From: Candidatus Saccharimonadota bacterium
Lineage (GTDB): Bacteria; Patescibacteriota; Saccharimonadia; Saccharimonadales; JAXHNE01
Reading direction: 5' to 3'
NCBI GenBank assembly: GCA_034520885.1
Contig: JAXHNE010000002.1
Span: 4,787-68,786, forward strand
Length of the DNA: 64,000 bases
Shown here: in pieces, positions 14,332 to 61,393 of the stretch
How positions within the stretch are numbered: position 1 is the stretch's first letter
Layout of the letters: each line of letters begins with the position of its first letter
Position numbers and translations under genes: made by a program
Notes under the pieces: model-generated
Database searches by the model: none
Seen by the model: only the letters and a program-made list of their open reading frames with translations
What the model was told of the DNA's origin: nothing

Positions 14332-14520
14332 TTATTGCTCGATCTTCTTTATCTTGTTCTCGGCCGCCTTGAGCTTGGCTTCCAGCTGCTTAATCAATTC
14401 GGCGCCGCGTTCGTACTTTTTAAAAGCTTCGTCGATATCGATATCTTCCGACTCCAGCTCCGCAAACACCTCGTCCAGTTCTTCGCGTAGTTGCTGATAA
14501 GTTTTATCTGTCATGACCAT
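14332..14520 (-). CDS. xseB: exodeoxyribonuclease VII small subunit
   Basis: 62-aa helical protein; ...LREELDEVFAELESEDIDIDEAFKKYERGAELIKQL is the typical XseB pattern. Confidence 0.85.
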   Translation of the reverse strand: MVMTDKTYQQLREELDEVFAELESEDIDIDEAFKKYERGAELIKQLEAKLKAAENKIKKIEQ

Positions 14521-14935
14521 TAGTTTATAGGTTTTAGTGGTTAGATGCTAGAGATTAGGGGTTAGAGGTTAGTAGGTGGAAGGCGGTAAGCGACTTCGTC
14601 GCAATAGACGATAGATGAGAATTAATAGGTGATAGATGAGGGGTGATGGGTCGTATAGTTGGTAGGTGGCAGTTCTATAGTTCTGAGTAGTGAGTGGTGA
14701 GCTTCAGATAATACTAGAATTAATATCTAGTATTAATTCTAGTATTATTGAAACTTACCAGGCACGAACTGGAAGATAGCAGTTGGCAAGCGGGAAGCTT
14801 TTAGACCCGGAACCGCCGCCACCTCGTTTATCACCTATTAATTCTCATCTATCGTCCTATTGCCTACCGAAGTCGCCTACCTCTTATCTATCACCTATCG
14901 ACTATTATCTATTAACTCTCACCTATGCGGCTTTG
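14521..14935. mobile_element. foldback (MITE/IVS-like) element with heptamer-word arms, a long inverted repeat and a 42-bp AT palindrome
   Basis: The left half is C-poor and the right half is its G-poor complement. 14590-14634 is the inverted repeat of 14829-14876. The near-perfect palindrome is at 14708-14749. There is no ORF, and the element separates xseB from xseA. Confidence 0.7.
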
Positions 14936-17211: not shown

Positions 17212-18513
17212 ATGAAGTCACTGGCAATTTTAGGACGGCAACCGGCAATTGGCCTTGCGGAGCTGGAGTCGCTGTATGGCGCCGAAGCCGTACGACCCGT
17301 CGGCGAAAACGCCGTTACCGTTAACATCGCCCCCGATCAAATTGAGTTCAGGCGGCTGGGGGGCACGGTAAAGCTCGCCAAATTATTGACAGTTTTAGAT
17401 TTTACGAACTGGGATAAAATTGAAGATTTTCTGGCCGAGGAACTCCCCAAGCACACCTGTTGCATTACGGAAGGCAAACTGACGCTGGGGCTGAGCGCCT
17501 ACGGGTTCAAAATGAGTCCCAAAAAATTAAACGCCACTGCCCTGTCGCTGAAAAAGACCATCAAAGCCACCGACCGGCCGGTAAGAATTGTACCCAATAA
17601 GTCACTGGAGCTTTCCAGTGCACAGGTACTGCATAACAAATTATTTACCTCGCACAATTGGGAGCTCATTTTGCTGCGTGACGGCAACGAAACCTACCTG
17701 GCACAAACTACCAACGTGCAAGATATCGACGCTTACGCCGCCCGCGACCAAGCCCGGCCGGCCCGGGACGCAAAGGTCGGCATGCTCCCACCGAAATTAG
17801 CCCAAACGATAATTAATTTGGCTGTAGGCCAAATTAAAAAGATTGAAGATCGAGGACAGGAGAACGAAGAAAAAAACCCTCAATCCTCAATCCCCCATCC
17901 TCTATCAGTTTTTGATCCGTTTTGCGGAACGGGCGTGATACTACAAGAAGCGCTACTAATGGGATATCAAGTGACTGGAACGGATCTCGATGCACGTATG
18001 GTCGAATACGCCCGGCGCAACATGGACTGGCTCCAGCAAAAATGGAAGGTGGAAGGTGGAAGATGGAAGGTGGCAGGTGGCAAATGGAAGGTGGAAAATG
18101 GCGATGCAACGGATTACTCCTGGCCTGCGCTCTCAGCTTCCGGCTCTCGGCTCTCGGCTACCATCGCTTGCGAAACGTACTTGGGACGACCGTTTTCTTC
18201 CGCGCCGGATCACGCTACGCTGCAAAAAGTCATGCGTGACGTGGACACCATCCACGAAAAGTTTTTAAAAAACGTGGCCTCGCAGACGGAGTCGGGTTTT
18301 CGAATGTGCCTCGCCGTGCCGGCATGGGCACGCCACAGACAACAGACAACAGACAACAGACAACAGACTTTTAGGCATTTACCGGTGCTTGAAAAATTGA
18401 ACGAACTGGGGTATACTCGATTAAGTTTTGCTCACGCAAGAAACGAGGAGTTGATCTATCACCGAGAAGGTCAAATCGTCGGCCGTGAGCTCGTCGTTCT
18501 AAAAAGAACGTAA
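17212..18513 (+). CDS. RNA (guanine-N2-type, Trm11/UPF0020-like) methyltransferase carrying three in-frame low-complexity inserts
   Basis: N-terminal THUMP-like region and SAM motif I VFDPFCGTGVILQEALLMG. The inserts are at 17841-17906, 18038-18165 and 18335-18368. Confidence 0.7.
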   Translation: MKSLAILGRQPAIGLAELESLYGAEAVRPVGENAVTVNIAPDQIEFRRLGGTVKLAKLLTVLDFTNWDKIEDFLAEELPKHTCCITEGKLTLGLSAYGFKMSPKKLNATALSLKKTIKATDRPVRIVPNKSLELSSAQVLHNKLFTSHNWELILLRDGNETYLAQTTNVQDIDAYAARDQARPARDAKVGMLPPKLAQTIINLAVGQIKKIEDRGQENEEKNPQSSIPHPLSVFDPFCGTGVILQEALLMGYQVTGTDLDARMVEYARRNMDWLQQKWKVEGGRWKVAGGKWKVENGDATDYSWPALSASGSRLSATIACETYLGRPFSSAPDHATLQKVMRDVDTIHEKFLKNVASQTESGFRMCLAVPAWARHRQQTTDNRQQTFRHLPVLEKLNELGYTRLSFAHARNEELIYHREGQIVGRELVVLKRT

Positions 18514-18720
18514 AGCAAGAAGTTAATTAACAAACTGATGCCGAGAAATTCAGGGTTTTCCCTGCGCCGATGAATGGCGGTTTGACAGCGAAGCACGGAC
18601 CGAGCCGTACTACAAGTACGGTGAAGGGGGTACTGGAGCTGGCAAACCGGCAGTCGCGGCGAGCTCATGCGGAGTCAGATGCTCTGCATCTGAGCAGGCA
18701 TTAGCGACAGGAGAAGCCTG

Positions 18721-19490: not shown

Positions 19491-21011
19491 TTAGAGCTTT
19501 GCCTTTCTTTTATTATTTTCTTGTCGCTCTACACCTCTCGACGCTCTAAATGATTTAATCGGAGCAAACTGATCTAAGAATTTGGAAATATCTACGTACT
19601 CGCCACTTGCCTTCGTAGAGGTGAATCTTGTTGGTATAGCGGTTGTCTGCTTATTATACTCAAGCGGTTTGGTGGTTAATATTCCTGAATACATCATCGT
19701 CTCGTCGGTACCATATGCCGTTGCCCTGCTATCCGCGGAGCGAATCCGATCGATCCATACGCGCCCTTCTTTGTCATACGCCATGTGCCAATGCACGCGT
19801 GCGCCATTTATGGAAGCCTCGTAAACCTCTTTTGTAATCTGCCCAAGATGAGGGTGGCTGTCCATATACGTCTCTACCGGTGAGTCGAACGTGGGCACTC
19901 CTTCCTCTTTTGATAGTTCACTATTTATTTTTTCAACGTAGTCACTGAGCGCATCACCGGCTTCTCCTGCCCCGACACCGAGTTGTTCGGCAACGTCTTG
20001 CTCTCCAAGAGTTCCGGTTCGTACTTGCTGTAAAAGCCCATTTAATTCGCGATTACCGAACCCAAGAACTCCAACTTTCTCATAAAATTCATTCATACTG
20101 ACCACGGCTTCGTGATGCGCCATAAAAAGTTCTCGAGGGTCGGTGTACGGAGCATGATCTCCATAAAACTCACTGGCTTCCTCTACGATTTTCCTAAACT
20201 CCGGGTGCAGTTGGGTATCTTGCGTGTATTGTGCGAGTGAACCGGTTTCGGGTCCTTTTACGAAACGCTGACTTTGGCTTTCAATACCTTGCGAAACCCG
20301 CAAACTTCCTTCCGAATTTGAGCGGTAAACAAAAAAAGTGTGCGAATTGCCTTCCTTGTCCGTGGATTCGAACACAAGCGATCTTTCCCGTTCGTTTACG
20401 GCGAACGCCCCTCTTAGCTCGTAGGATACGTCATCAATTTTACGTTCAAAATTGCCTTCTTTTTCTTGACTTTCAGGGGTTTCAAGTGGATTCGTAATTA
20501 CTGATGTGCCGTTAGTTGATTCTAGATCGGTAATGTTTACGCGGCCGTTCTCGTAAGACACCGAAAAATGGTTCCTGGAGACATGATCGTCCTCAAGACC
20601 GAGACGTTTCGCGTGGTGGGCTCTCCCGTACACCTTTTCACCGCTATTCTCGCGAACCGGCATAACAGCGTCCGAAGCCGGCCGCGCCTCATCTTCATCG
20701 GCTTTAGTATCCGGGTCGTACTCTTGGGAGCCAAGAAACAAAAAACCGTTCGGGTTGATCCTGCCACTCTCGGCGGGTGCCCACAATTTAACCCCTCTGC
20801 CCGCAACATCCATTACCGCTACGAGAGCCGAGGTTTCACGCATCTCTAGTGGCTCAACTGTGCTCAGATCAATGGAAAGAGCACCTTCGCCCAAGTTATG
20901 CAATTCTAGCTGTTGGTGTCGCGCTTCCGTTTCCTGGTCTATATCAGTTACGAACGGCTTTACTTGCTCAACGGCGTCAGAAGAGAGTGGGTCTTGTTCA
21001 AAGCTTTTCAT
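19491..21011 (-). CDS. FHA-domain protein with a large uncharacterised C-terminal region
   Basis: The central segment VYGRAHHAKRLGLEDDHVSRNHFSVSYENGRVNITDLESTNGTSV matches the FHA pattern (GR...S..H....N...D..S.NGT). Confidence 0.7.
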   Translation of the reverse strand: MKSFEQDPLSSDAVEQVKPFVTDIDQETEARHQQLELHNLGEGALSIDLSTVEPLEMRETSALVAVMDVAGRGVKLWAPAESGRINPNGFLFLGSQEYDPDTKADEDEARPASDAVMPVRENSGEKVYGRAHHAKRLGLEDDHVSRNHFSVSYENGRVNITDLESTNGTSVITNPLETPESQEKEGNFERKIDDVSYELRGAFAVNERERSLVFESTDKEGNSHTFFVYRSNSEGSLRVSQGIESQSQRFVKGPETGSLAQYTQDTQLHPEFRKIVEEASEFYGDHAPYTDPRELFMAHHEAVVSMNEFYEKVGVLGFGNRELNGLLQQVRTGTLGEQDVAEQLGVGAGEAGDALSDYVEKINSELSKEEGVPTFDSPVETYMDSHPHLGQITKEVYEASINGARVHWHMAYDKEGRVWIDRIRSADSRATAYGTDETMMYSGILTTKPLEYNKQTTAIPTRFTSTKASGEYVDISKFLDQFAPIKSFRASRGVERQENNKRKAKL

Positions 21012-21052
21012 TGTTTTATAGTTGTTTAACTATAAAAACACTAGCATTATTT

Positions 21053-21061
21053 TGCTATAAT
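21053..21061 (+). promoter_or_regulatory. extended -10 promoter (TGcTATAAT) facing the 191-bp tandem array
   Basis: TG at 21053-21054 and TATAAT at 21056-21061. On the opposite strand, TTGACA (21066-21061) could serve the FHA gene. Confidence 0.5.
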
Positions 21062-21100
21062 GTCAACTTGCGTTCAGAACAAAGCAGGCTCGACGGTATG

Positions 21101-21600
21101 AGTACTAAACCTGGCGTCCTGACTTTGTGCCAGATTGAAATTTTATCCGCGAAGCGCCAAGGAAGCGTACTGAACGTACGGTGACTGCGACTCGTAAGGA
21201 TAAAATACTCAAGCTGGCCAAGAAACATGAATCGCGCGCCTAGTGCTCACACTTGAGTACAGTTTGGTCGTTCTTTTCGAGGAGCGGACCGAGTACTAAA
21301 CCTGGCGTCCTGACTTTGTGCCAGATTGAAATTTTATCCGCGAAGCGCCAAGGAAGCGTACTGAACGTACGGTGACTGCGACTCGTAAGGATAAAATATT
21401 CAAGCTGGCCAAGAAACATGAATCGCGCGCTTAGTGCTCACACTTGAGTACAGTTTGGTCGTTCTTTTCGAGGAGCGGACCGAGTACTAAACCTGGCGTA
21501 CTGACTTTGTGCCAGATTGAAATTTTATCCGCGAAGCGCCAAGGAGGCGTATTAATATACGGTGACTGCGACTCGTAAGGATAAAATATTCAAGCTGGCC
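21101..21600 (+). repeat. tandem repeat, 191-bp unit x about 2.6 (candidate multi-unit ncRNA)
   Basis: Units start at 21101, 21292 and 21483 and are nearly identical by eye. Each has several hairpins, including GCGTAC-TGAAC-GTACGGTGACTGCGA. Confidence 0.85.
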
Positions 21601-21605
21601 AAAGA

Positions 21606-21656
21606 CAAACATCCAGTGGTATTTCTGGTTTTACCAGAAAACAGACTGGATGTTTG
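21606..21656. terminator. long bidirectional hairpin terminator
   Basis: CAAACATCCAGT (21606-21617) pairs with ACTGGATGTTTG (21645-21656), with an inner stem CTGGT/ACCAG. It lies directly after the receiver-gene stop and at the end of the tandem array. Confidence 0.65.
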
Positions 21657-21658
21657 GG

Positions 21659-22117
21659 TCAGGACGCCAGGTGGGCTTTAACGCGTTCTACCACGTCCGC
21701 AATAACCACCTGCGACTTCACCAAATAATCATCAACGCCCAAATCCTGGGCGCGTTGTTTGTCGCTGTCCTGGCTAAGCGCGGTTAACATTACCACCTTT
21801 ACGTTGGAGGTTTCCGGCGTATTACGCAAAATGTCCAGCACGTCGAACCCGCTGACCTTGGGCATCATCACGTCCAGCAAAATGATATCCGGCTTGTATT
21901 CCATGGCCGAGGAAAGCGCGTCTTCCCCGTTGGGAACCCGTTTGGTATCAAACCCTTCGGCCTGGAAACGCGTGGTGTAGACACTTGCCAGCGCGTCGTC
22001 ATCTTCAACCAGCAGTATTTTCTTGGCCTTTGGCTGCGGATCATTGGACGGATTGGCTTGCGTTTGCTGATTTTCTTGCGGCGCTTGGCCTTGATTTTCT
22101 TGGTTTTCGTCGTTCAT
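21659..22117 (-). CDS. stand-alone response-regulator receiver protein (canonical Asp) with Gln/Asn-rich N-terminus
   Basis: KILLVEDDDALA...PDIILLDVMMPKVSGFDVL...VVMLTALS...DYLVKS. ATG at 22117 is preceded by AAGGAA. Confidence 0.85.
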   Translation of the reverse strand: MNDENQENQGQAPQENQQTQANPSNDPQPKAKKILLVEDDDALASVYTTRFQAEGFDTKRVPNGEDALSSAMEYKPDIILLDVMMPKVSGFDVLDILRNTPETSNVKVVMLTALSQDSDKQRAQDLGVDDYLVKSQVVIADVVERVKAHLAS

Positions 22118-22215
22118 TGAAAGTTCCTTGTTACTACTAGTGTTTATGATGACGCATTCTAATAATTTAAGCAAGCCCCGTGGCGGACTCTTTCACGATA
22201 TTTCGGCAAGTGGCG

Positions 22216-23832: not shown

Positions 23833-24078
23833 GTTGCCCTGCTTCCTGACAAAGTCAGAAACCTTGTCAACGTTTGTGGCGCGATACTGCGTTGACAGCT
23901 CCGTTGCTCATTCACCGTACCGTTAGTACGCCTCAGTCCGCTACTCACTGTCGCCTTGTCTCGCATCCACATGCAAAATCCTCCGGTCGGCTTCTTTGCC
24001 ACGCTCGCTACTCCCTCTAAACTATTCTTTAAATACTAACCCAGACAGAAGAAATCATCAAGAAAGCATTCCAATTAG

Positions 24079-24898: not shown

Positions 24899-25102
24899 GA
24901 TTCCAGGCTCTGAAGCAACCTGGACGAGCGTTGTGAGAATCAGGCGCCCTTGGGTGCGAGGACTGTTTGAGTAAAAATGGTGCCTGTCGGCACTATTTCT
25001 GTGAGTTCCAAGATCGTGGCTTTTCTAAAATGTTCACTATAGCTTCTTCACTGAAAACTGACAACGAACAACCGACAACTGTTATATAACTAGTTATATA
25101 AC
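24899..25102. repeat. solo copy of the 'unit-2' structured module, followed by GACAAC words and a 22-bp AT palindrome
   Basis: 24901-25008 is about 88% identical by eye to 60826-60932. GTTATATAACTAGTTATATAAC at 25081-25102 is a perfect palindrome. Confidence 0.7.
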
Positions 25103-29368: not shown

Positions 29369-29397
29369 ATTATACACTCGTGACACATGCACCACAA
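29369..29397 (-). promoter_or_regulatory. sigma70-type promoter of ftsE giving a leaderless or near-leaderless mRNA
   Basis: Minus-strand TTGTGG (29397-29392), a 17-nt spacer, then TATAAT (29374-29369) preceded by TG. Seven nucleotides later comes the ATG. Confidence 0.6.
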
Positions 29398-29460
29398 CGG
29401 GCAAAAAGGCAAACAAAGTTCGCTTTATTGCCGTTGCTCTTGGCTCAATAAGTAATTTTC
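29378..29460. repeat. 83-bp direct repeat, copy 1 (overlaps the ftsE promoter)
   Basis: Identical by eye to 29673-29755. Confidence 0.85.
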
Positions 29461-29672
29461 CTTTGTGAGTACTCCCTCACCGTATCTCGATACGCCTCAG
29501 TCCGTTCCTCAAGGAGAAATTACTTCTTGAGCTCAAGTGCATGCCTCACGAAACCCGTATATCCATATCCAATTTTCTTCTGCGGTTCTCCTTCACCGTA
29601 CGGACAAGTACGGCTCAGTCTGCGTCCTCAAAGATAAATTGAATCTGGGATCACAAATGTGAGAGTGGTTTA

Positions 29673-29755
29673 TCGTGACACATGCACCACAACGGGCAAA
29701 AAGGCAAACAAAGTTCGCTTTATTGCCGTTGCTCTTGGCTCAATAAGTAATTTTC
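29673..29755. repeat. 83-bp direct repeat, copy 2
   Basis: Identical by eye to 29378-29460, with a period of 295 bp. Confidence 0.85.
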
Positions 29756-29956
29756 GTTTGCGGTGTTCACTCACCGTACCGAAAGTACGCCTCGCTGAAA
29801 CTCCTCACGAGAAATACCAAATGAGCCTCAAGTGTGTGGCTCTGATTGCAAATCGATTATTTAAGGAGAAATTGCTTCTTGAGCTCAAGTGCAAGTCTTA
29901 GGTTACACGAATTTTTATAGCAATTATAACGGTTTTGGAAGAGCCGGATTTTTAAT

Positions 29957-44406: not shown

Positions 44407-45348
44407 TCAGACGAAAAAGATGAGCGACAAGACGACCAGCAACGTCGCCTGCAAGACAACGATCACCTTTTCAGCGGCTATAAAGTCCTTACCCAGCGAG
44501 CCGGATTTAGTAATTTGCTGCCGATGCACTTGCCCGAGCGCCAGGTAAGCCAAAAATCCGGCGGCCAACAAGGCATAGACGGAGGCGCTCAAAGTAACGA
44601 ACCCGTACAGGTAAGTGTGTAAAATGCTGATACCGATGATAACCCATGGCAAAAGCAGTGCTTCGATGGCGATTTTTTGTTTCAGCCTCGTACTGCGACC
44701 GATCAAGTTATAACGATCGGTCAAATACCCCAAGACGGCGGTAAATGCCGGAATGCTCGCCAAAAGAAGCAGCGTCATAACGTCGCGCACGCCGACCGCC
44801 GCGGCGATCACCGCGATAACCAACGGGCCGAAAACCGCGTGTTCTACCCAGTTCAAACTGGTAAATTTATTCTTTACTTGCGCGCTATAACGAGCGAATA
44901 ACCTTGTCGATAAAGCGGCGTGCCATAAAGCTCCGGCAATCAACACGCCCGCTGCCACGTACAACAGGTTAACCGCGAACAATTCGGTGGCCGCCGGCAA
45001 AAGCGATCCGGTTTCGGTCAAAGTATTCTCCGCCAGGTAGCTGGAGTTAATTCCCACCACCGCGTCATTGCCGTAGCTAAATAAGAATCCGGCCAACACG
45101 GCCATTAATAATCCTAAGAACACGTGCAGTTTTTTAAGCTGCATGAACGCGTCTTTTACGGGCGCGGTTTTTTTGCCCTTGGCCGTAGCCGCTGATTTTT
45201 TAGCGGTCGTTTTGGCCGTAGTTTTCTTGGCCGCCGTTTTCTTGGCGGGTTTTTTAGTGGATTTACGAGCCGTGCTCGCCCTGGAAGTCTTGGTCTTCGT
45301 TTTGGTCGTTGTTTTCGCTTTACTCGGTTGTTTCTTACTTGTAGCCAT
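44407..45348 (-). CDS. heliorhodopsin-like 7-TM protein with Lys/Ala/Thr-rich N-terminal tail
   Basis: Seven predicted TM helices. RYSAQVKNKFTSLNWVEHAV and LPWVIIG resemble heliorhodopsin segments as I remember them. The start is ATG 45348; the ORF-track extension to 45591 is spurious. Confidence 0.55.
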   Translation of the reverse strand: MATSKKQPSKAKTTTKTKTKTSRASTARKSTKKPAKKTAAKKTTAKTTAKKSAATAKGKKTAPVKDAFMQLKKLHVFLGLLMAVLAGFLFSYGNDAVVGINSSYLAENTLTETGSLLPAATELFAVNLLYVAAGVLIAGALWHAALSTRLFARYSAQVKNKFTSLNWVEHAVFGPLVIAVIAAAVGVRDVMTLLLLASIPAFTAVLGYLTDRYNLIGRSTRLKQKIAIEALLLPWVIIGISILHTYLYGFVTLSASVYALLAAGFLAYLALGQVHRQQITKSGSLGKDFIAAEKVIVVLQATLLVVLSLIFFV

Positions 45349-45578
45349 AATGAATGAACTATAGCATATTCCAGCTGATATAATAATAGTATGGTGCAAA
45401 GAGCTGAATGGAGGGATGCCGTGAACTACGCACGTGAGCATAGTTTGGCAGTTCTTCGCGAGCATCGTAAAAGAGGCGTACTTAACGGTACGGTGACTGC
45501 GAAGCGCAGAGAAAACTGGCAAAATATGCCACGAACAGCAACAGCACCACATGCTTGGCATGTGGGCAGGATGCTGTG

Positions 45579-46112
45579 ATGCGTAGTTCACAGGTCGCTA
45601 CTTTGGCCGGTGGTTGTTTTTGGTGCTTGGACGCGATTTTCCGCCAAACCAAAGGGGTAAAATCCGTTCAAAGCGGTTTTAGCGGCGGCCATGTTGAAAA
45701 CCCTAGCTACATGCAAACGCATGATGAAGACACCGGCCACGCCGAAGCCGTACAAATCGAGTTTAACCCTGACGTCATTAGCTACGAAACGATCTTACGA
45801 ATATTTTGGACGAGCCATAACCCCACCACGCTCAACCGTGATGGCGCCAACGTCGGGCCGGAGTACCGAAGCGAGGTGTTCTATCACGACGAAACCCAGC
45901 GCAAAACCGCGGAGAACGTACTACGTGACTACGCCGAAAAACTGTGGGACGATCCCATCGTCACCAAAATTACCAAGTACAAAAACTTCTACCCCGCCGA
46001 AGAACATCACCAGGATTATTTTAATAAAAACCCACAGGCCGGCTACTGCCAAGTCATCATCAACCCCAAAATCACTAAGTTCAAGGAAAAATTCAAGGAC
46101 TATTTAATCTAG
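45579..46112 (+). CDS. msrA: peptide methionine (S)-S-oxide reductase
   Basis: Active-site GGCFWC motif and the size of the MsrA family. Confidence 0.9.
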   Translation: MRSSQVATLAGGCFWCLDAIFRQTKGVKSVQSGFSGGHVENPSYMQTHDEDTGHAEAVQIEFNPDVISYETILRIFWTSHNPTTLNRDGANVGPEYRSEVFYHDETQRKTAENVLRDYAEKLWDDPIVTKITKYKNFYPAEEHHQDYFNKNPQAGYCQVIINPKITKFKEKFKDYLI

Positions 46113-53237: not shown

Positions 53238-53280
53238 TTATCCTCCAATAATTTACTGGTATCAGTATACAGGATGTAGA

Positions 53281-54100
53281 GTTTGGACGGTAGAGGCGAG
53301 GAGTTGGTAGGTAGTAGATAGGAGATCGGGGATTGAGGATTGAGGATTGAGGAAAGAGTTCTGGGTTCATAGTTCATGGATAGGGTTTAGGGGCTAGGAG
53401 TTGGAAGATGGAAGTTGGAATTTGGTAGATAGAAGATGGTAGTTGGGAGTTAGTATTTCGTAGACAGTTGTCAGTTGTCCGTCTTCAGTAGTTGCGTTGT
53501 TCCAGGCTCTGGCTGAACTGATTGGACGATACGGGCAAAACCAGCAAACAAGCCTCAAGCTTGTTTTTTATGTAGTTACAACTGCCCTCGGCAGTTGTTC
53601 ACTTGGGCTCCAGGCTTCGAAAGCCTCCCCGGTAGTAGAACCAGTTCACTACGGGGCACGCCTGAGGAGCGAGTGTCAAAAGCACAATTTCTGCCGAGGA
53701 CTTGTTTGAGGGGTTGCCGGCTGAAGTATTTTGGCATACCCCGAGTTGTCCGAGCATTGTGCTTTTTGATAATGAGATCATAAAGAGGTTTTCGCGCCTG
53801 TGGCCTTTTTGGGGCACTTTTTGGCTACGCAAAAAGTGTCTGGGGGTGAAGCTGACCAGTCAGCTTCAATAATGACAGAACAAGATAGTGGGTCGGGAAA
53901 GCAAAAGCGAAGCTTTGCGCCGAAAAAACATACTTTGGGGCACTTTTTGGCCATGCAAAAAGTGCCTGACGGGAAGCTGACCAGACAGCTTCATATAATT
54001 CGTTACTGCCTACGATATTGATCGTATAGTTACAGTTGTCTAGCCCCTGTTGCAGAGCAATAATACTAGAATTAATACTAGTATTAATTCTAGTATTATT
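53281..54100. mobile_element. one-armed member of the foldback family: heptamer-word arm, roughly 590-bp structured non-coding core, perfect 42-bp AT palindrome
   Basis: Word arm at 53281-53470, hairpin modules at 53497-53995, palindrome at 54059-54100. The only ORFs here are short and inconsistent. Confidence 0.7.
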
Positions 54101-57312: not shown

Positions 57313-57651
57313 ATGAGTTCGTACCGTGACCTAAAAGTCTGGAAAGATTCATTTGAGCTAACAAAATTAGTTTATAAAGCTACTGTCAAGTTACCTTCAA
57401 ATGAAAAGTTCGGTCTCGCTTCACAAATACAGCGTTGCGCAGTCTCGATTCCGTCAAATATTGCAGAAGGCCAACAACGAAAAGGTGCAAACGAATTTAA
57501 ACAGTTTCTTGGGATAGCCCGCGGTTCTGCGGCCGAACTTTCAACGCAACTTCTGCTTGCCCAGGACATCTATTCTATCGAACTGGAAATACTTGTAGAA
57601 AAAACTGAAGAAATTCAAAAAATGCTCTATAGCTTGCAGCAAAAACTGTAA
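57313..57651 (+). CDS. four-helix-bundle protein (23S rRNA intervening-sequence protein / Avd-like family)
   Basis: YRDLKVWKDSFELTKLVY...QIQRCAVSIPSNIAEGQQRKGANEF...GSAAELSTQ. The gene is flanked by GTTGACAGT / CTGTAACCT word repeats. Confidence 0.85.
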   Translation: MSSYRDLKVWKDSFELTKLVYKATVKLPSNEKFGLASQIQRCAVSIPSNIAEGQQRKGANEFKQFLGIARGSAAELSTQLLLAQDIYSIELEILVEKTEEIQKMLYSLQQKL

Positions 57652-59637: not shown

Positions 59638-60513
59638 ATGATTACCATTTCTAGGTGGATGGCTAAAAAAACTAAAGCGCTAGAGAGCGCCGGGATTTCC
59701 ACCGCTCGACTGGATTGTTTGGTGCTTTTAGAGGACGCGACCGGTAAAGATCGTTCATGGTTGCTGGCGCATCCGGAGCACGAGTTAGAAAGTTCAAAAG
59801 TTAAAAAGCTGAAAGAGCAAGTTCAGCGGCGGGCTAAGCATGAGCCGCTGGCCTATATTCGTGGGCGGAGTGCTTTTTATGGCCGGGAGTTTTTGGTGAA
59901 CGAACATACTTTGCAGCCCCGGCCGGAAACGGAAACGATGATCGACCACTTAAAATCACTGTACAAGGTTGAACCTTGTACAGAAGCTAAAAGCTCTGAG
60001 CGAAAAGCTCTGAGCATAGTAGATGTAGGGACTGGATCTGGTTGTATTGGGATTACCGCCAAGCTGGAGCTGCCGGATGCGGAAGTGTATGCCACGGACA
60101 TTTCCGAAGAATGCTTAAAAATAGCCCGAAAAAACGCCCGAAAACTAAAAGCCAATGTGGAGTTCCACAAAGCTAATCTCCTCCTCTCCCAAAAAAATAA
60201 TTCTCACTTTTTGAACGATCGTTCAAAAAGTGAGAATATTGTTTTGCTGGCTAATTTACCTTATGTTCCGGAAGGTTTCACTATAAACCAAGCCGCGATG
60301 TTCGAGCCGGACGTTGCCATATTCGGCGGTAAGGACGGATTGGATTACTACCGCGAGTTATTCGCCCAGATTGAAACGCTAAAAACTAAACCACATTTCA
60401 TTTTTACCGAAAGCCTACCAACGCAGCACAAAGACCTGACTGCAATCGCAGAAAAACACGGGTTTCGGCTTCATGAATGCCAGGATTTTATTCAAGTATT
60501 TATTAGGCGTTAG
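59638..60513 (+). CDS. prmC: release-factor glutamine methyltransferase PrmC/HemK
   Basis: EPLAYIRGRSAFYGREF, VDVGTGSGCIGI, and NLPYV in place of NPPY. ATG at 59638. The stop TAG (60511-60513) lies within the terminal motif of the downstream foldback element. Confidence 0.85.
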   Translation: MITISRWMAKKTKALESAGISTARLDCLVLLEDATGKDRSWLLAHPEHELESSKVKKLKEQVQRRAKHEPLAYIRGRSAFYGREFLVNEHTLQPRPETETMIDHLKSLYKVEPCTEAKSSERKALSIVDVGTGSGCIGITAKLELPDAEVYATDISEECLKIARKNARKLKANVEFHKANLLLSQKNNSHFLNDRSKSENIVLLANLPYVPEGFTINQAAMFEPDVAIFGGKDGLDYYRELFAQIETLKTKPHFIFTESLPTQHKDLTAIAEKHGFRLHECQDFIQVFIRR

Positions 60514-61393
60514 ATGCTAGACGTTAGAGGGTAGAGGGTAGAAGTTGGAAGTTGGAATTTGGAAGGTGGAAGATGGTAGGCGACTTCTTCGCAAAAGGTG
60601 AGAGTTAATAGATAAGGGTTAATAGATGATAGATGAAGGGTGGTAGATGGAAGATGGAAGATAGAAGATGGAAGATGGGGAAAATAATAAGTAAAACATA
60701 AATAGTAAGTTTCCGGGCTCTGCCTGAAACGATTGGACGGCGCCTCGGGTAAAAACCGACAAACAAGCTTCAAGCTTGTTTTTTATGTAGTTACAACTGC
60801 TCCGGAGCAGTTGTTCACTTGGCCTCCAGGCTCTGGAACAACCTGGACGGACGTTGTGGGAATCAGGCGCCCTTGGGTACGAGGACTGTCTGAGCAGAAA
60901 TGGTGCCTGGCGGCACCATTTCTGTGAGTTTCACAGTAAGCCTGATTGTGACAACGGCCGTAGCTGTTGTTTCAGCCGCCTGTCGGCTTTTGTTGCAATC
61001 TTTTGCCGACTCAAAAGATTGCTGACGGGGAGCTGGTCAGTCAGCTTCGCTATTGGCGGAACAAGATAGTGGGTCGGGAAAGCAAAAGCGAAGCTTTGCG
61101 CCGAAAAAACATACTTTGGGGCACTTTTTGGCCATGCAAAAAGTGCCTGGTGGTGAAGCTGACCAGACAGCTTCTATTAGTAGTTACCTACTACTTTGAT
61201 TGTATAGTTATGGCCGTATCGCCCTTGTTAAAACGTAATAATACTAGTATTAACTCTAGTATTAATACTAGTATTATTTTTACTAACTATGAGGTGCTAT
61301 CTTCCATATCCTAAATTCCATCTTCCAAGCACTATCTTCTAGCCCCTGTCTTCAATCTTCAATCCCCAATCTTCATTCCGTAACAACTATGAA
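60509..61393. mobile_element. complete foldback-family element: two inverted heptamer-word arms, structured core, 42-bp AT palindrome
   Basis: Left arm 60509-60700 (C-poor), core 60712-61176, palindrome 61237-61278, right arm 61285-61393 (G-poor, the reverse complement of arm-type sequence also seen at 53300-53440). It fills the whole prmC-htrA convergent spacer. Confidence 0.75.

Follow-up and report, generated by a model that had tools for sequence, protein, structure and literature searches.

The locus considered here is a tandem array of 191-nt units that lies between two minus-strand genes of a Candidatus Saccharimonadota bacterium, and the question it raises is whether such an array is a dedicated RNA gene. 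It was analysed within a 64,000 nt stretch of contig JAXHNE010000002.1 (assembly GCA_034520885.1, positions 4,787 to 68,786), called the window below and numbered from its first letter. A preliminary description had read the array as a self-contained plus-strand transcription unit, with its own promoter and terminator, possibly specifying a decoy or sponge RNA. Our analysis shows that the array unit belongs, as a diverged member, to a large family of rod-like structured elements that spans several phyla and is apparently uncatalogued in Rfam 15 and in the searchable literature, and that the array itself is probably a recent, lineage-specific tandem amplification of this dispersed structured repeat. 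No role specific to the array would be needed to explain it.

Tandem Repeats Finder placed the array at 21100-21602 on the plus strand with a period of 191 nt, 2.6 copies, 97% matches and a score of 950, and a second repeat finder agreed; the repeat described at the outset is real. As had also been said, the units are near-identical. In a unit-by-unit comparison, units 1 and 2 differ at 2 positions only (21208 and 21240), and unit 3, which ends after ca. 120 nt, has one C>A change near its start and a cluster of changes at its apex (A>G, C>T, loop TGAAC to TAAT, G>A). The latter convert CGTAC/GTACG into CGTAT/ATACG. This compensatory double change, already pointed out, is real; the loop between the two arms is TAAT (4 nt), one base shorter than in the other units, and not TAATA as first given.

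Folding of the 609-nt stretch yielded -251 kcal/mol as against -176 kcal/mol for shuffled sequence (z = -7.5), the value for a single unit being z = -4.3. Each unit forms one rod-like hairpin of ca. 117 nt, located at 21116-21232, 21307-21423 and 21497-21613 on the plus strand. The base of the rod is formed by GCCAG (21130-21134) pairing with the downstream CTGGC (21213-21217) and not with the upstream CTGGC, as had been proposed; ACTCAAG is part of the rod, and its supposed pairing with CTTGAGT is not predicted. The strong structure ascribed to the units is thus upheld with different partners. All three carry the apex GA-R-S-CGUAC, loop, GUACG-G-U-GA, which in unit 3 takes the form CGUAU/AUACG.

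The units might alternatively encode small proteins, either of 28 aa from the plus strand or of 41-59 aa from minus-strand open reading frames (ORFs) starting MFLGQLEYF. On the minus strand every unit does contain ATG-started ORFs, and the single plus-strand one is the 28-codon ORF already listed at 21098-21184. However, the period of 191 is not a multiple of 3, a 1-nt loop deletion in unit 3 shifts the minus-strand frame relative to the other units after TSRSHR, no Shine-Dalgarno sequence was seen, and the wider family varies by compensatory changes and by changes in loop length that are not multiples of 3. We therefore set coding aside as highly improbable, and the array is non-coding, made of strongly structured units, as originally supposed.

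The extent of the family was determined by scanning one genome per GTDB species for the apex pattern, so that the seed loci necessarily share an identical apex. At least 119 loci were returned, compared with ca. 70 chance matches over the whole collection as estimated from the degeneracy of the pattern. Taxon names are those of the record titles. Among the first 80 titles listed, ca. 32 belong to Patescibacteria (Saccharibacteria, Paceibacteria, Kaiser-, Uhr-, Lloyd- and Zambryskibacteria) and 10 to Bryobacterales, and the rest include other Acidobacteriota, Nitrospirota, Myxococcota/Deltaproteobacteria, Gammaproteobacteria, Clostridia, Synergistota, Omnitrophota and the Burkholderiales Variovorax, Xylophilus, Janthinobacterium and Herbaspirillum. 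The apex caps a long hairpin in nearly all loci among the matches listed, the element measuring 115-185 nt. Read from the base upward, the rod comprises P1, tandem G.A pairs, a 3-bp helix, an A-rich loop, P2, a variable P3 and the apex GA-G-(C/G)-CGUAC...GUACG-G-U-GA, in which a second tandem G.A is accompanied by an almost invariant G.U pair; the two tandem G.A/A.G motifs accordingly stand above P1 and below the apex helix. Outside the imposed pattern, the blocks AGAURC-WAGGCG (5') and AAC-NNN-G-YAGAUG (3') are common to phyla.

A covariance model, R1, was built from 25 copies of other genomes plus most of one window copy (that upstream of pyrG) and contains no array sequences. It recovers all nine copies present in the window, the three array rods at full model length with E-values of ~1e-6 to 7e-5, which over 64 kb are rough given the shortened calibration. 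The rod of unit 1, a single long hairpin, scores 38.6 bits (E 9.6e-7, model positions 1-116), that of unit 2 37.1 bits (E 2.2e-6) and that of unit 3 30.7 bits (E 7.1e-5). R1 also found further copies lacking the exact apex in the same 8-kb loci that had been fetched, at a density of ca. one extra copy per 25 kb besides the seed match.

The helices of the family covary strongly. In a plain MAFFT alignment of 26 sequences, compensatory double changes were found in 13 of the 21 consensus pairs. Among 86 R1 matches, 91.1% of cells are paired (68.0% when shuffled), both sides change in 18 of the 21 pairs and the covariation score is 0.535 versus 0.146, and only 24-42% of cells pair when partners are slid by 1-3 columns. 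These matches were aligned to R1, a procedure favouring its structure, and the plain MAFFT alignment yields the same pairs. Apparent orthologues (L033 and L080; L022, L038 and L114) likewise keep their helices via double changes. Judged from these alignments, the rod family is clearly under selection for structure, and the covariation that had been suggested as a check on the unit is present in the wider family.

Comparison with Rfam 15 produced no match at the gathering threshold in the window, nor in 8 loci with canonical copies. With E-values up to 10 the array region gave only a chance miRNA-like match to the terminator hairpin (E 0.013), and positions 6130-6400 of L024 gave no family; the array thus matches no Rfam family. 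Open-access texts searched with sequence strings and keywords held no description of the element, an earlier description elsewhere being possible, and the part consulted of a preprint on gLM2 intergenic features does not cover it. No tRNA or tmRNA was found in the window. The apex pattern has 0 matches in 2.9 million viral contigs, and a phage origin was rejected on this count.

Within the window the core GTACGGTGA, allowing up to 1 mismatch, has 32 matches where 10 are expected, and 9 of these possess the full hairpin context. The hairpin GA-R-S-CGTAC...GTACG-GTGA occurs three times in the array, three times before an ABC ATPase gene and once each before rpmA, pyrG and msrA, which bears out the earlier remark that the motif is shared with several leaders; all copies outside the array are sense to the downstream gene. 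The copy upstream of pyrG (23865-23979, minus strand) is canonical and aligns column by column with those of other genomes; it scores 77.4 bits with R1, though most of it is in the seed alignment A3. Only the apical half is present upstream of rpmA (18584-18645, plus strand; 37.4 bits, model positions 28-89), and another partial copy precedes msrA (45455-45513, plus strand; 27.8 bits), the downstream ORF (45555-46112) matching PMSR. The three copies before the ABC ATPase gene share the minus strand (29431-29543, 29548-29662 and 29752-29811; 24.8, 32.9 and 30.0 bits), and the T:A apex variant of unit 3 recurs in the copy at 29477. Adjoining them in the same leader is an 88-nt repeat (29378-29465 and 29673-29760, 99% identity), a second recent local duplication, which takes in a terminator-like hairpin as well as the opening codons of the ORF. 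The heliorhodopsin gene (44407-45591, minus strand) was called with a 150-aa N-terminal extension that overlaps the copy at 45455-45513, and its true start is therefore probably further downstream.

These copies also clarify the make-up of the array unit. In local alignments the 74-nt spacer of the unit matches the 5' half of each copy at 29771, 45488 and 29477 (scores of 29-40, shuffled maxima 24-30), so that a unit consists of one full element and one truncated 5' half of a second family member, the latter at 21248-21297 and again at 21439-21488 on the plus strand. The basal module of the unit reads CAGAUUGAA ... UUCAAGCUGG, in which the 5' AGAU is retained and the GGCG/CAAC part of the family blocks is replaced. 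The array rods are therefore diverged members of the family that have kept the apex and overall architecture and exchanged the basal GGCG/CAAC block.

The origin of the array was traced with three relatives that retain the genes for the S41 peptidase, pyrG, the response regulator, FHA, L27 and the methyltransferase in this order. In these the spacer between the response-regulator and FHA genes, 122-152 nt in length, comprises the terminator and the FHA promoter only. R1 detected no element in the 9.5-kb loci of the relatives at E-values up to 1, and the orthologous stretch of the window holds five. The family does occur elsewhere in L039, which by its contig prefix (DATIJK01) is from the same assembly as the relative L123. 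The lineage of the window has accordingly gained the array copies and those at pyrG and rpmA. Since the units belong to the family and the syntenic loci are empty, insertion plus tandem duplication is the simplest reading. One full and one truncated copy would have come to occupy the spacer that separates the response-regulator terminator from the FHA promoter, and unequal recombination or replication slippage between the neighbouring homologous copies would have generated the 2.6 near-identical 191-bp units.

Tandem units of this kind are rare in the material searched. Two apexes 165-200 nt apart were sought in JGI metagenomes, which gave one same-strand, diverged pair with a terminator between its members (L124) and otherwise nothing relevant; the pattern also caught two unrelated 41-nt repeats. 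On a JGI metagenome contig, L125 (1807-2167), a 41-nt tandem repeat of ca. 9 copies with TCACCGTAC and GTAC blocks is a chance match. In the fetched loci two same-strand copies within 500 nt were seen only in L080. Near-identical tandem units thus look peculiar to the genome of the window, which has two duplicated clusters. Pairs of another type occur in L029 (3801-4091) and L026 (6047-6392), where two divergent copies stand back to back with 59-115 nt between them; the left one of L029 extends over the stop codon of its gene, and 21 nt separate the end of the right one from a start codon preceded by TATAGT.

Signs of mobility come from the Bryobacterales, in which a unit of exactly 185 nt with unrelated flanks is present in at least 10 copies (85-100% identity) on one chromosome. 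Its ends are inverted repeats of ca. 20 bp (CCCGCWTTTCTCACCGC), and the copies are flanked by CTAG/CTAG or TTAG/TTAG, the signature of a 4-bp target duplication. To judge from these termini, the element is carried there by a unit resembling a miniature inverted-repeat transposable element (MITE). A group II intron interrupts one Bryobacterales copy (L065, 2253-4192) 13 nt short of its end, and the same insertion is present in L098; the L065 intron possesses an ORF for a reverse transcriptase/maturase of 506 aa, a 5' GUGCG and a domain V of its own.

Several observations weigh against explaining the array by insertion and amplification. Terminal inverted repeats and target duplications were not found in Patescibacterial copies, and the MITE model was rejected for this group; the outer stems of these copies differ within one genome, leaving presence or absence as the sign of mobility there. 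The syntenic relatives are distant (their FHA proteins are 37-43% identical), and the time of insertion cannot be dated from them. The window copies are atypical of the family in being mostly sense, upstream of genes and free of A/U tracts, and could have been recruited as leaders. An RNA product and a function for the array may exist, and the C:G to T:A change of unit 3 could reflect selection on the array hairpin; the clustering of changes in this unit and the variant at 29477 fit a conversion patch equally well. Lastly, the copy number of the array rests on one metagenome-assembled genome (MAG).

The last point bears on a further explanation, namely that the copy number is an assembly artefact in which a single unit was expanded or a longer array collapsed. 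An array-specific 23-mer had 0 matches in metagenomes, so the array is known from no second assembly, and the contig of the independent short-read Logan assembly SRR26473340 breaks at the edge of the repeat, at window position 21129. By its coordinates, however, this break falls about one k-mer into the repeat, as expected at a genuine repeat junction, and the units are non-identical, unit 2 departing from unit 1 by two single-nucleotide differences and unit 3 being distinct in its apex and end. We consider an artefact improbable, and amplification of a genuine repeat remains the favoured reading.

The array is flanked on one side by an FHA-domain gene (19491-21011, minus strand), the start of which faces it, and on the other by a receiver-domain response-regulator gene (21659-22174, minus strand), the stop codon of which faces it; pyrG lies just beyond. 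Apart from one 100% identical protein of a Candidatus Saccharibacteria MAG, the next homologue of the FHA protein is 43% identical. The last rod ends 45 nt from the response-regulator stop codon with a separate hairpin between, and the orientation of the neighbours is that usual for the family.

It was from these two intergenic borders that a promoter and a terminator had been assigned to the array. The proposed extended -10 box, TGcTATAAT, is present at 21053-21061 on the plus strand; it falls inside the spacer of the FHA gene promoter, which occupies 21038-21066 of the minus strand (TTGACA 21066-21061, 17 nt, TAGTGT 21043-21038). The corresponding promoter of the relative L121 is nearly base-for-base the same and stands at an equal distance from the start codon, and at the position matching the box this relative, which has no array, carries TGCTAAAAT. 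The box is therefore the opposite strand of a conserved FHA promoter spacer and gives no evidence for a promoter owned by the array. A consensus promoter scan found no -35/-10 pair at it. Divergent transcription from the FHA promoter region may nevertheless start at this box, in which case an RNA of ca. 0.55 kb with three rods would result.

The hairpin at 21606-21656 likewise exists as described. It starts 3 nt past the response-regulator stop codon, folds with -29.7 kcal/mol on the minus strand and is followed there by the U-rich tail GUUUGUCUUUGG; the plus strand continues GGGUCAGG, and no U-run was found on that strand after the rods or after the hairpin. The syntenic relatives have a plain terminator at this position. 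From its sequence the hairpin is better read as the probable terminator of the minus-strand response-regulator gene. The box thus forms part of the region of the divergent FHA promoter and the closing hairpin has the orientation of a terminator for the convergent gene, and a self-contained transcription unit is not supported.

This evidence also bears on the weight that can be given to a dedicated non-coding RNA gene transcribed from the TGcTATAAT box, acting as a decoy or sponge for a factor that binds the copies in the rpmA, pyrG, msrA and ABC leaders. The extended -10 box is directed at the array, all three rods fold on the strand that it would transcribe, the motif stands sense upstream of four genes, the unit 3 hairpin is retained by a double change and the array is placed as family members usually are, between a gene start and the stop of a convergent gene. 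Against it, the box belongs to a conserved promoter found in an array-free relative, the plus strand has no U-tract terminator, both the locus and the leader copies are missing from the syntenic relatives, and any partner protein would be hypothetical. The model for such a gene was CsrB/RsmY/RsmZ, which it resembles in the logic, proposed at the outset, of a repeated binding module with single copies in mRNA leaders. The array differs in that its units are 191 nt long and 97-99% identical, which points to recent duplication rather than to long-maintained or evolved degenerate sites. The four GGA triplets of each unit lie wholly or mostly in predicted stems and not in loops, and two CsrA queries gave nothing below E 2.6 by tblastn within the 64-kb window. 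The CsrB/RsmZ analogy is thus not supported, and a sponge gene of any kind is in our view unlikely.

The wider family gives a different picture of where rods normally reside. Gene calls in the fetched loci are longest ORFs, which are unreliable in high-GC genomes. In the low-GC loci of Patescibacterial type, the 3' end of the element lies between -9 and +12 nt from the stop codon of an opposite-strand gene in ca. 25 of 30; both neighbours are antisense in 20, the genes are convergent in 5 and 5 show other arrangements. The adjoining genes, recognised from their translations, are housekeeping ones (rpoC, nusG, rpoD, infC, clpP, RNase J, smc, pgk, ssb, ndk, rpsG, priA and metK). In many copies the GC-rich base of P1 is preceded by an A-tract and followed by a U-tract. 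Several are intercistronic, 9-55 nt from the next start codon, and at least 6 have a canonical terminator after them. In this usual setting at gene ends, the A/U tracts of many copies resemble those of a two-way terminator.

It is in this context that a cis function was considered, in which the rods of the array would serve as an insulator or extra terminator against divergent transcripts from the FHA promoter, keeping these from reading antisense through the response-regulator gene and pyrG, or would protect the 3' end of the mRNA of the response regulator. The gene-end position and terminator-like flanks of Patescibacterial copies speak for this, as does the location of the array, with a promoter region directly on one side and the 3' end of a convergent gene on the other. 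Against it, a U-tract is missing after P1 of the array rods and also from the pyrG copy, the locus already has a terminator hairpin of its own, three copies would be superfluous, and full termination would be lethal at several of the intercistronic and leader copies, e.g. that of pyrG. A cis role for the array is accordingly doubtful, and its origin as an amplified dispersed repeat is preferred.

Which strand of the element folds presents a paradox. The strand reading GA...GUGA folds better in 84 of 85 sequences (mean -64.9 versus -51.3 kcal/mol) and has 396 G.U pairs where the other strand has 198. Among consensus pairs, leaving aside the invariant G.U, there are 108 G.U versus 32 A.C, 71 of these G.U being in three semi-conserved pairs. 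Composition or mutation bias was rejected as the cause, the bias we would expect being in the opposite direction, yet most of the G.U excess is in those three pairs. In Patescibacteria the folding strand is antisense to the abutted gene, and the RNA certainly made there is therefore its reverse complement. No positional peak of -10-like hexamers was found upstream of 56 copies, and a promoter belonging to the copies themselves was rejected. Short divergent or antisense transcripts may bear the folding strand, the folded form may be single-stranded DNA, or the conserved mismatches may be read as pyrimidine loops in the sense RNA. The role of the family would most likely be that of a single-stranded hairpin module recognised by a conserved host factor.

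A more far-reaching proposal builds on this role. The rod with its GAGCCGUAC...GUACGGUGA apex would be a new, ancient and widespread structured class with a conserved partner, e.g. a reader of tandem G.A pairs, and the array would be a three-unit concatemer that titrates this partner from the rpmA, pyrG, msrA and ABC leaders. On this proposal the apex class would have dozens of copies per genome in Patescibacteria and would extend to Acidobacteriota, Nitrospirota, Myxococcota and Burkholderiales, among others. As an account of the array it is tentative, and we give it a low probability.

Comparison with known systems places the family between several categories. It resembles repetitive extragenic palindromes (REP), BIME, ERIC and MITE elements (ERIC, Correia, RUP) in consisting of multi-copy imperfect palindromes of ca. 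100-190 nt, intergenic and often just after genes, that form long hairpins when transcribed and vary in their copies between related genomes; the Bryobacterales form shares terminal inverted repeats and a 4-bp flanking duplication with MITEs. It differs from all of these in a core and non-Watson-Crick pairs common to phyla and in its strong covariation, from MITEs in being conserved at the centre and variable at the ends, and from REP in having no GTAG-headed 20-40-nt unit. Typical copies share with two-way intrinsic terminators a start at the stop codon of a gene and a GC-rich stem base between an A-tract and a U-tract; the rods, however, are at least 100 nt long with conserved internal loops, and many are intercistronic or in leaders. 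A simple terminator was rejected for the window copies, which have no U-tract and include the pyrG copy in a leader. The attC sites of integrons are likewise structure-defined imperfect palindromes of similar size directly after the stop of an ORF, with the folding strand antisense to it. By comparison, the rods follow housekeeping genes (rpoC, nusG, rpoD, infC) and no integrase context was seen; attC was rejected as the alignments show RYYYAAC/GTTRRRY boxes neither in the family consensus nor in the units. Read in the same way, the consensus does not fit REP/RAYT, the hammerhead or a K-turn with a 3-nt bulge. Its resemblance to domain V of group II introns (GAGCCG..CGGUUC) was judged coincidental, the real intron in the Bryobacterales copy having a domain V of its own.

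Tandem structured RNA units are also a feature of TIGR systems and of type III antitoxin (ToxI-like) arrays. TIGR systems occur in Patescibacteria and have tandem G.A (box C/D) motifs, 36-nt units with two spacers and an adjoining gene for Tas, a Nop-domain protein (PMC12045711). The units of both systems measure 36-40 nt and lie beside a Tas or toxin gene; here they are 191 nt long beside FHA and response-regulator genes. TIGR was rejected for the array, the units of which are near-identical without variable spacers and have these two genes as neighbours. A ToxI-like array would be expected to consist of 34-40-nt repeats with a toxin endoribonuclease gene downstream in the same orientation; with a period of 191 and a convergent response-regulator gene next to it, this assignment was rejected as well.

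The window contains other repeats. Heptad-period repeats (7, 14 and 21 nt; TGGAAGG and GGTAGAT types) are found at 18039-18101, 14520-14930, 53260-53460 and 60500-60700; one lies inside a methyltransferase-like ORF (17212-18513), where it encodes WKVEGGRWKVAGGKWKVENG, and the others are intergenic. A 12-nt unit, TAATACTAGTAT, forms short tandem arrays at three intergenic sites (14709-14747, 54061-54098 and 61235-61276). Dispersed intergenic repeats of 83-94% identity (53537-53968 versus 60752-61149, and 24902-25010 versus 60825-60933) are unrelated to the rod family. Between 56926 and 58753 the order is an L31 gene, a gene for a protein of the 23S rRNA intervening-sequence family (57313-57651) and an RF-1 ORF; the PCRF match of the latter starts only at profile position 65, which suggests a release-factor gene that is split or has lost its N-terminal part.

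By itself the array is a small and recent duplication in one MAG. The family to which it belongs is of greater note, combining clear covariation, two conserved tandem G.A motifs, a fixed location at the ends of genes, a spread over many phyla and, in Patescibacteria, a high copy number with absence from Rfam 15. The non-coding repertoire of the Patescibacteria is almost uncharted. With the model and more than 100 loci in hand, the family can be tested directly. Should it be a selfish repeat, it would be unusual for the conservation of its centre across phyla. If it proves to be a functional RNA or single-stranded DNA module, it would be among the more widespread uncatalogued ones, and the position of its folding strand, antisense to the adjacent gene, would point to a mechanism outside the usual categories of terminator, riboswitch and small RNA.

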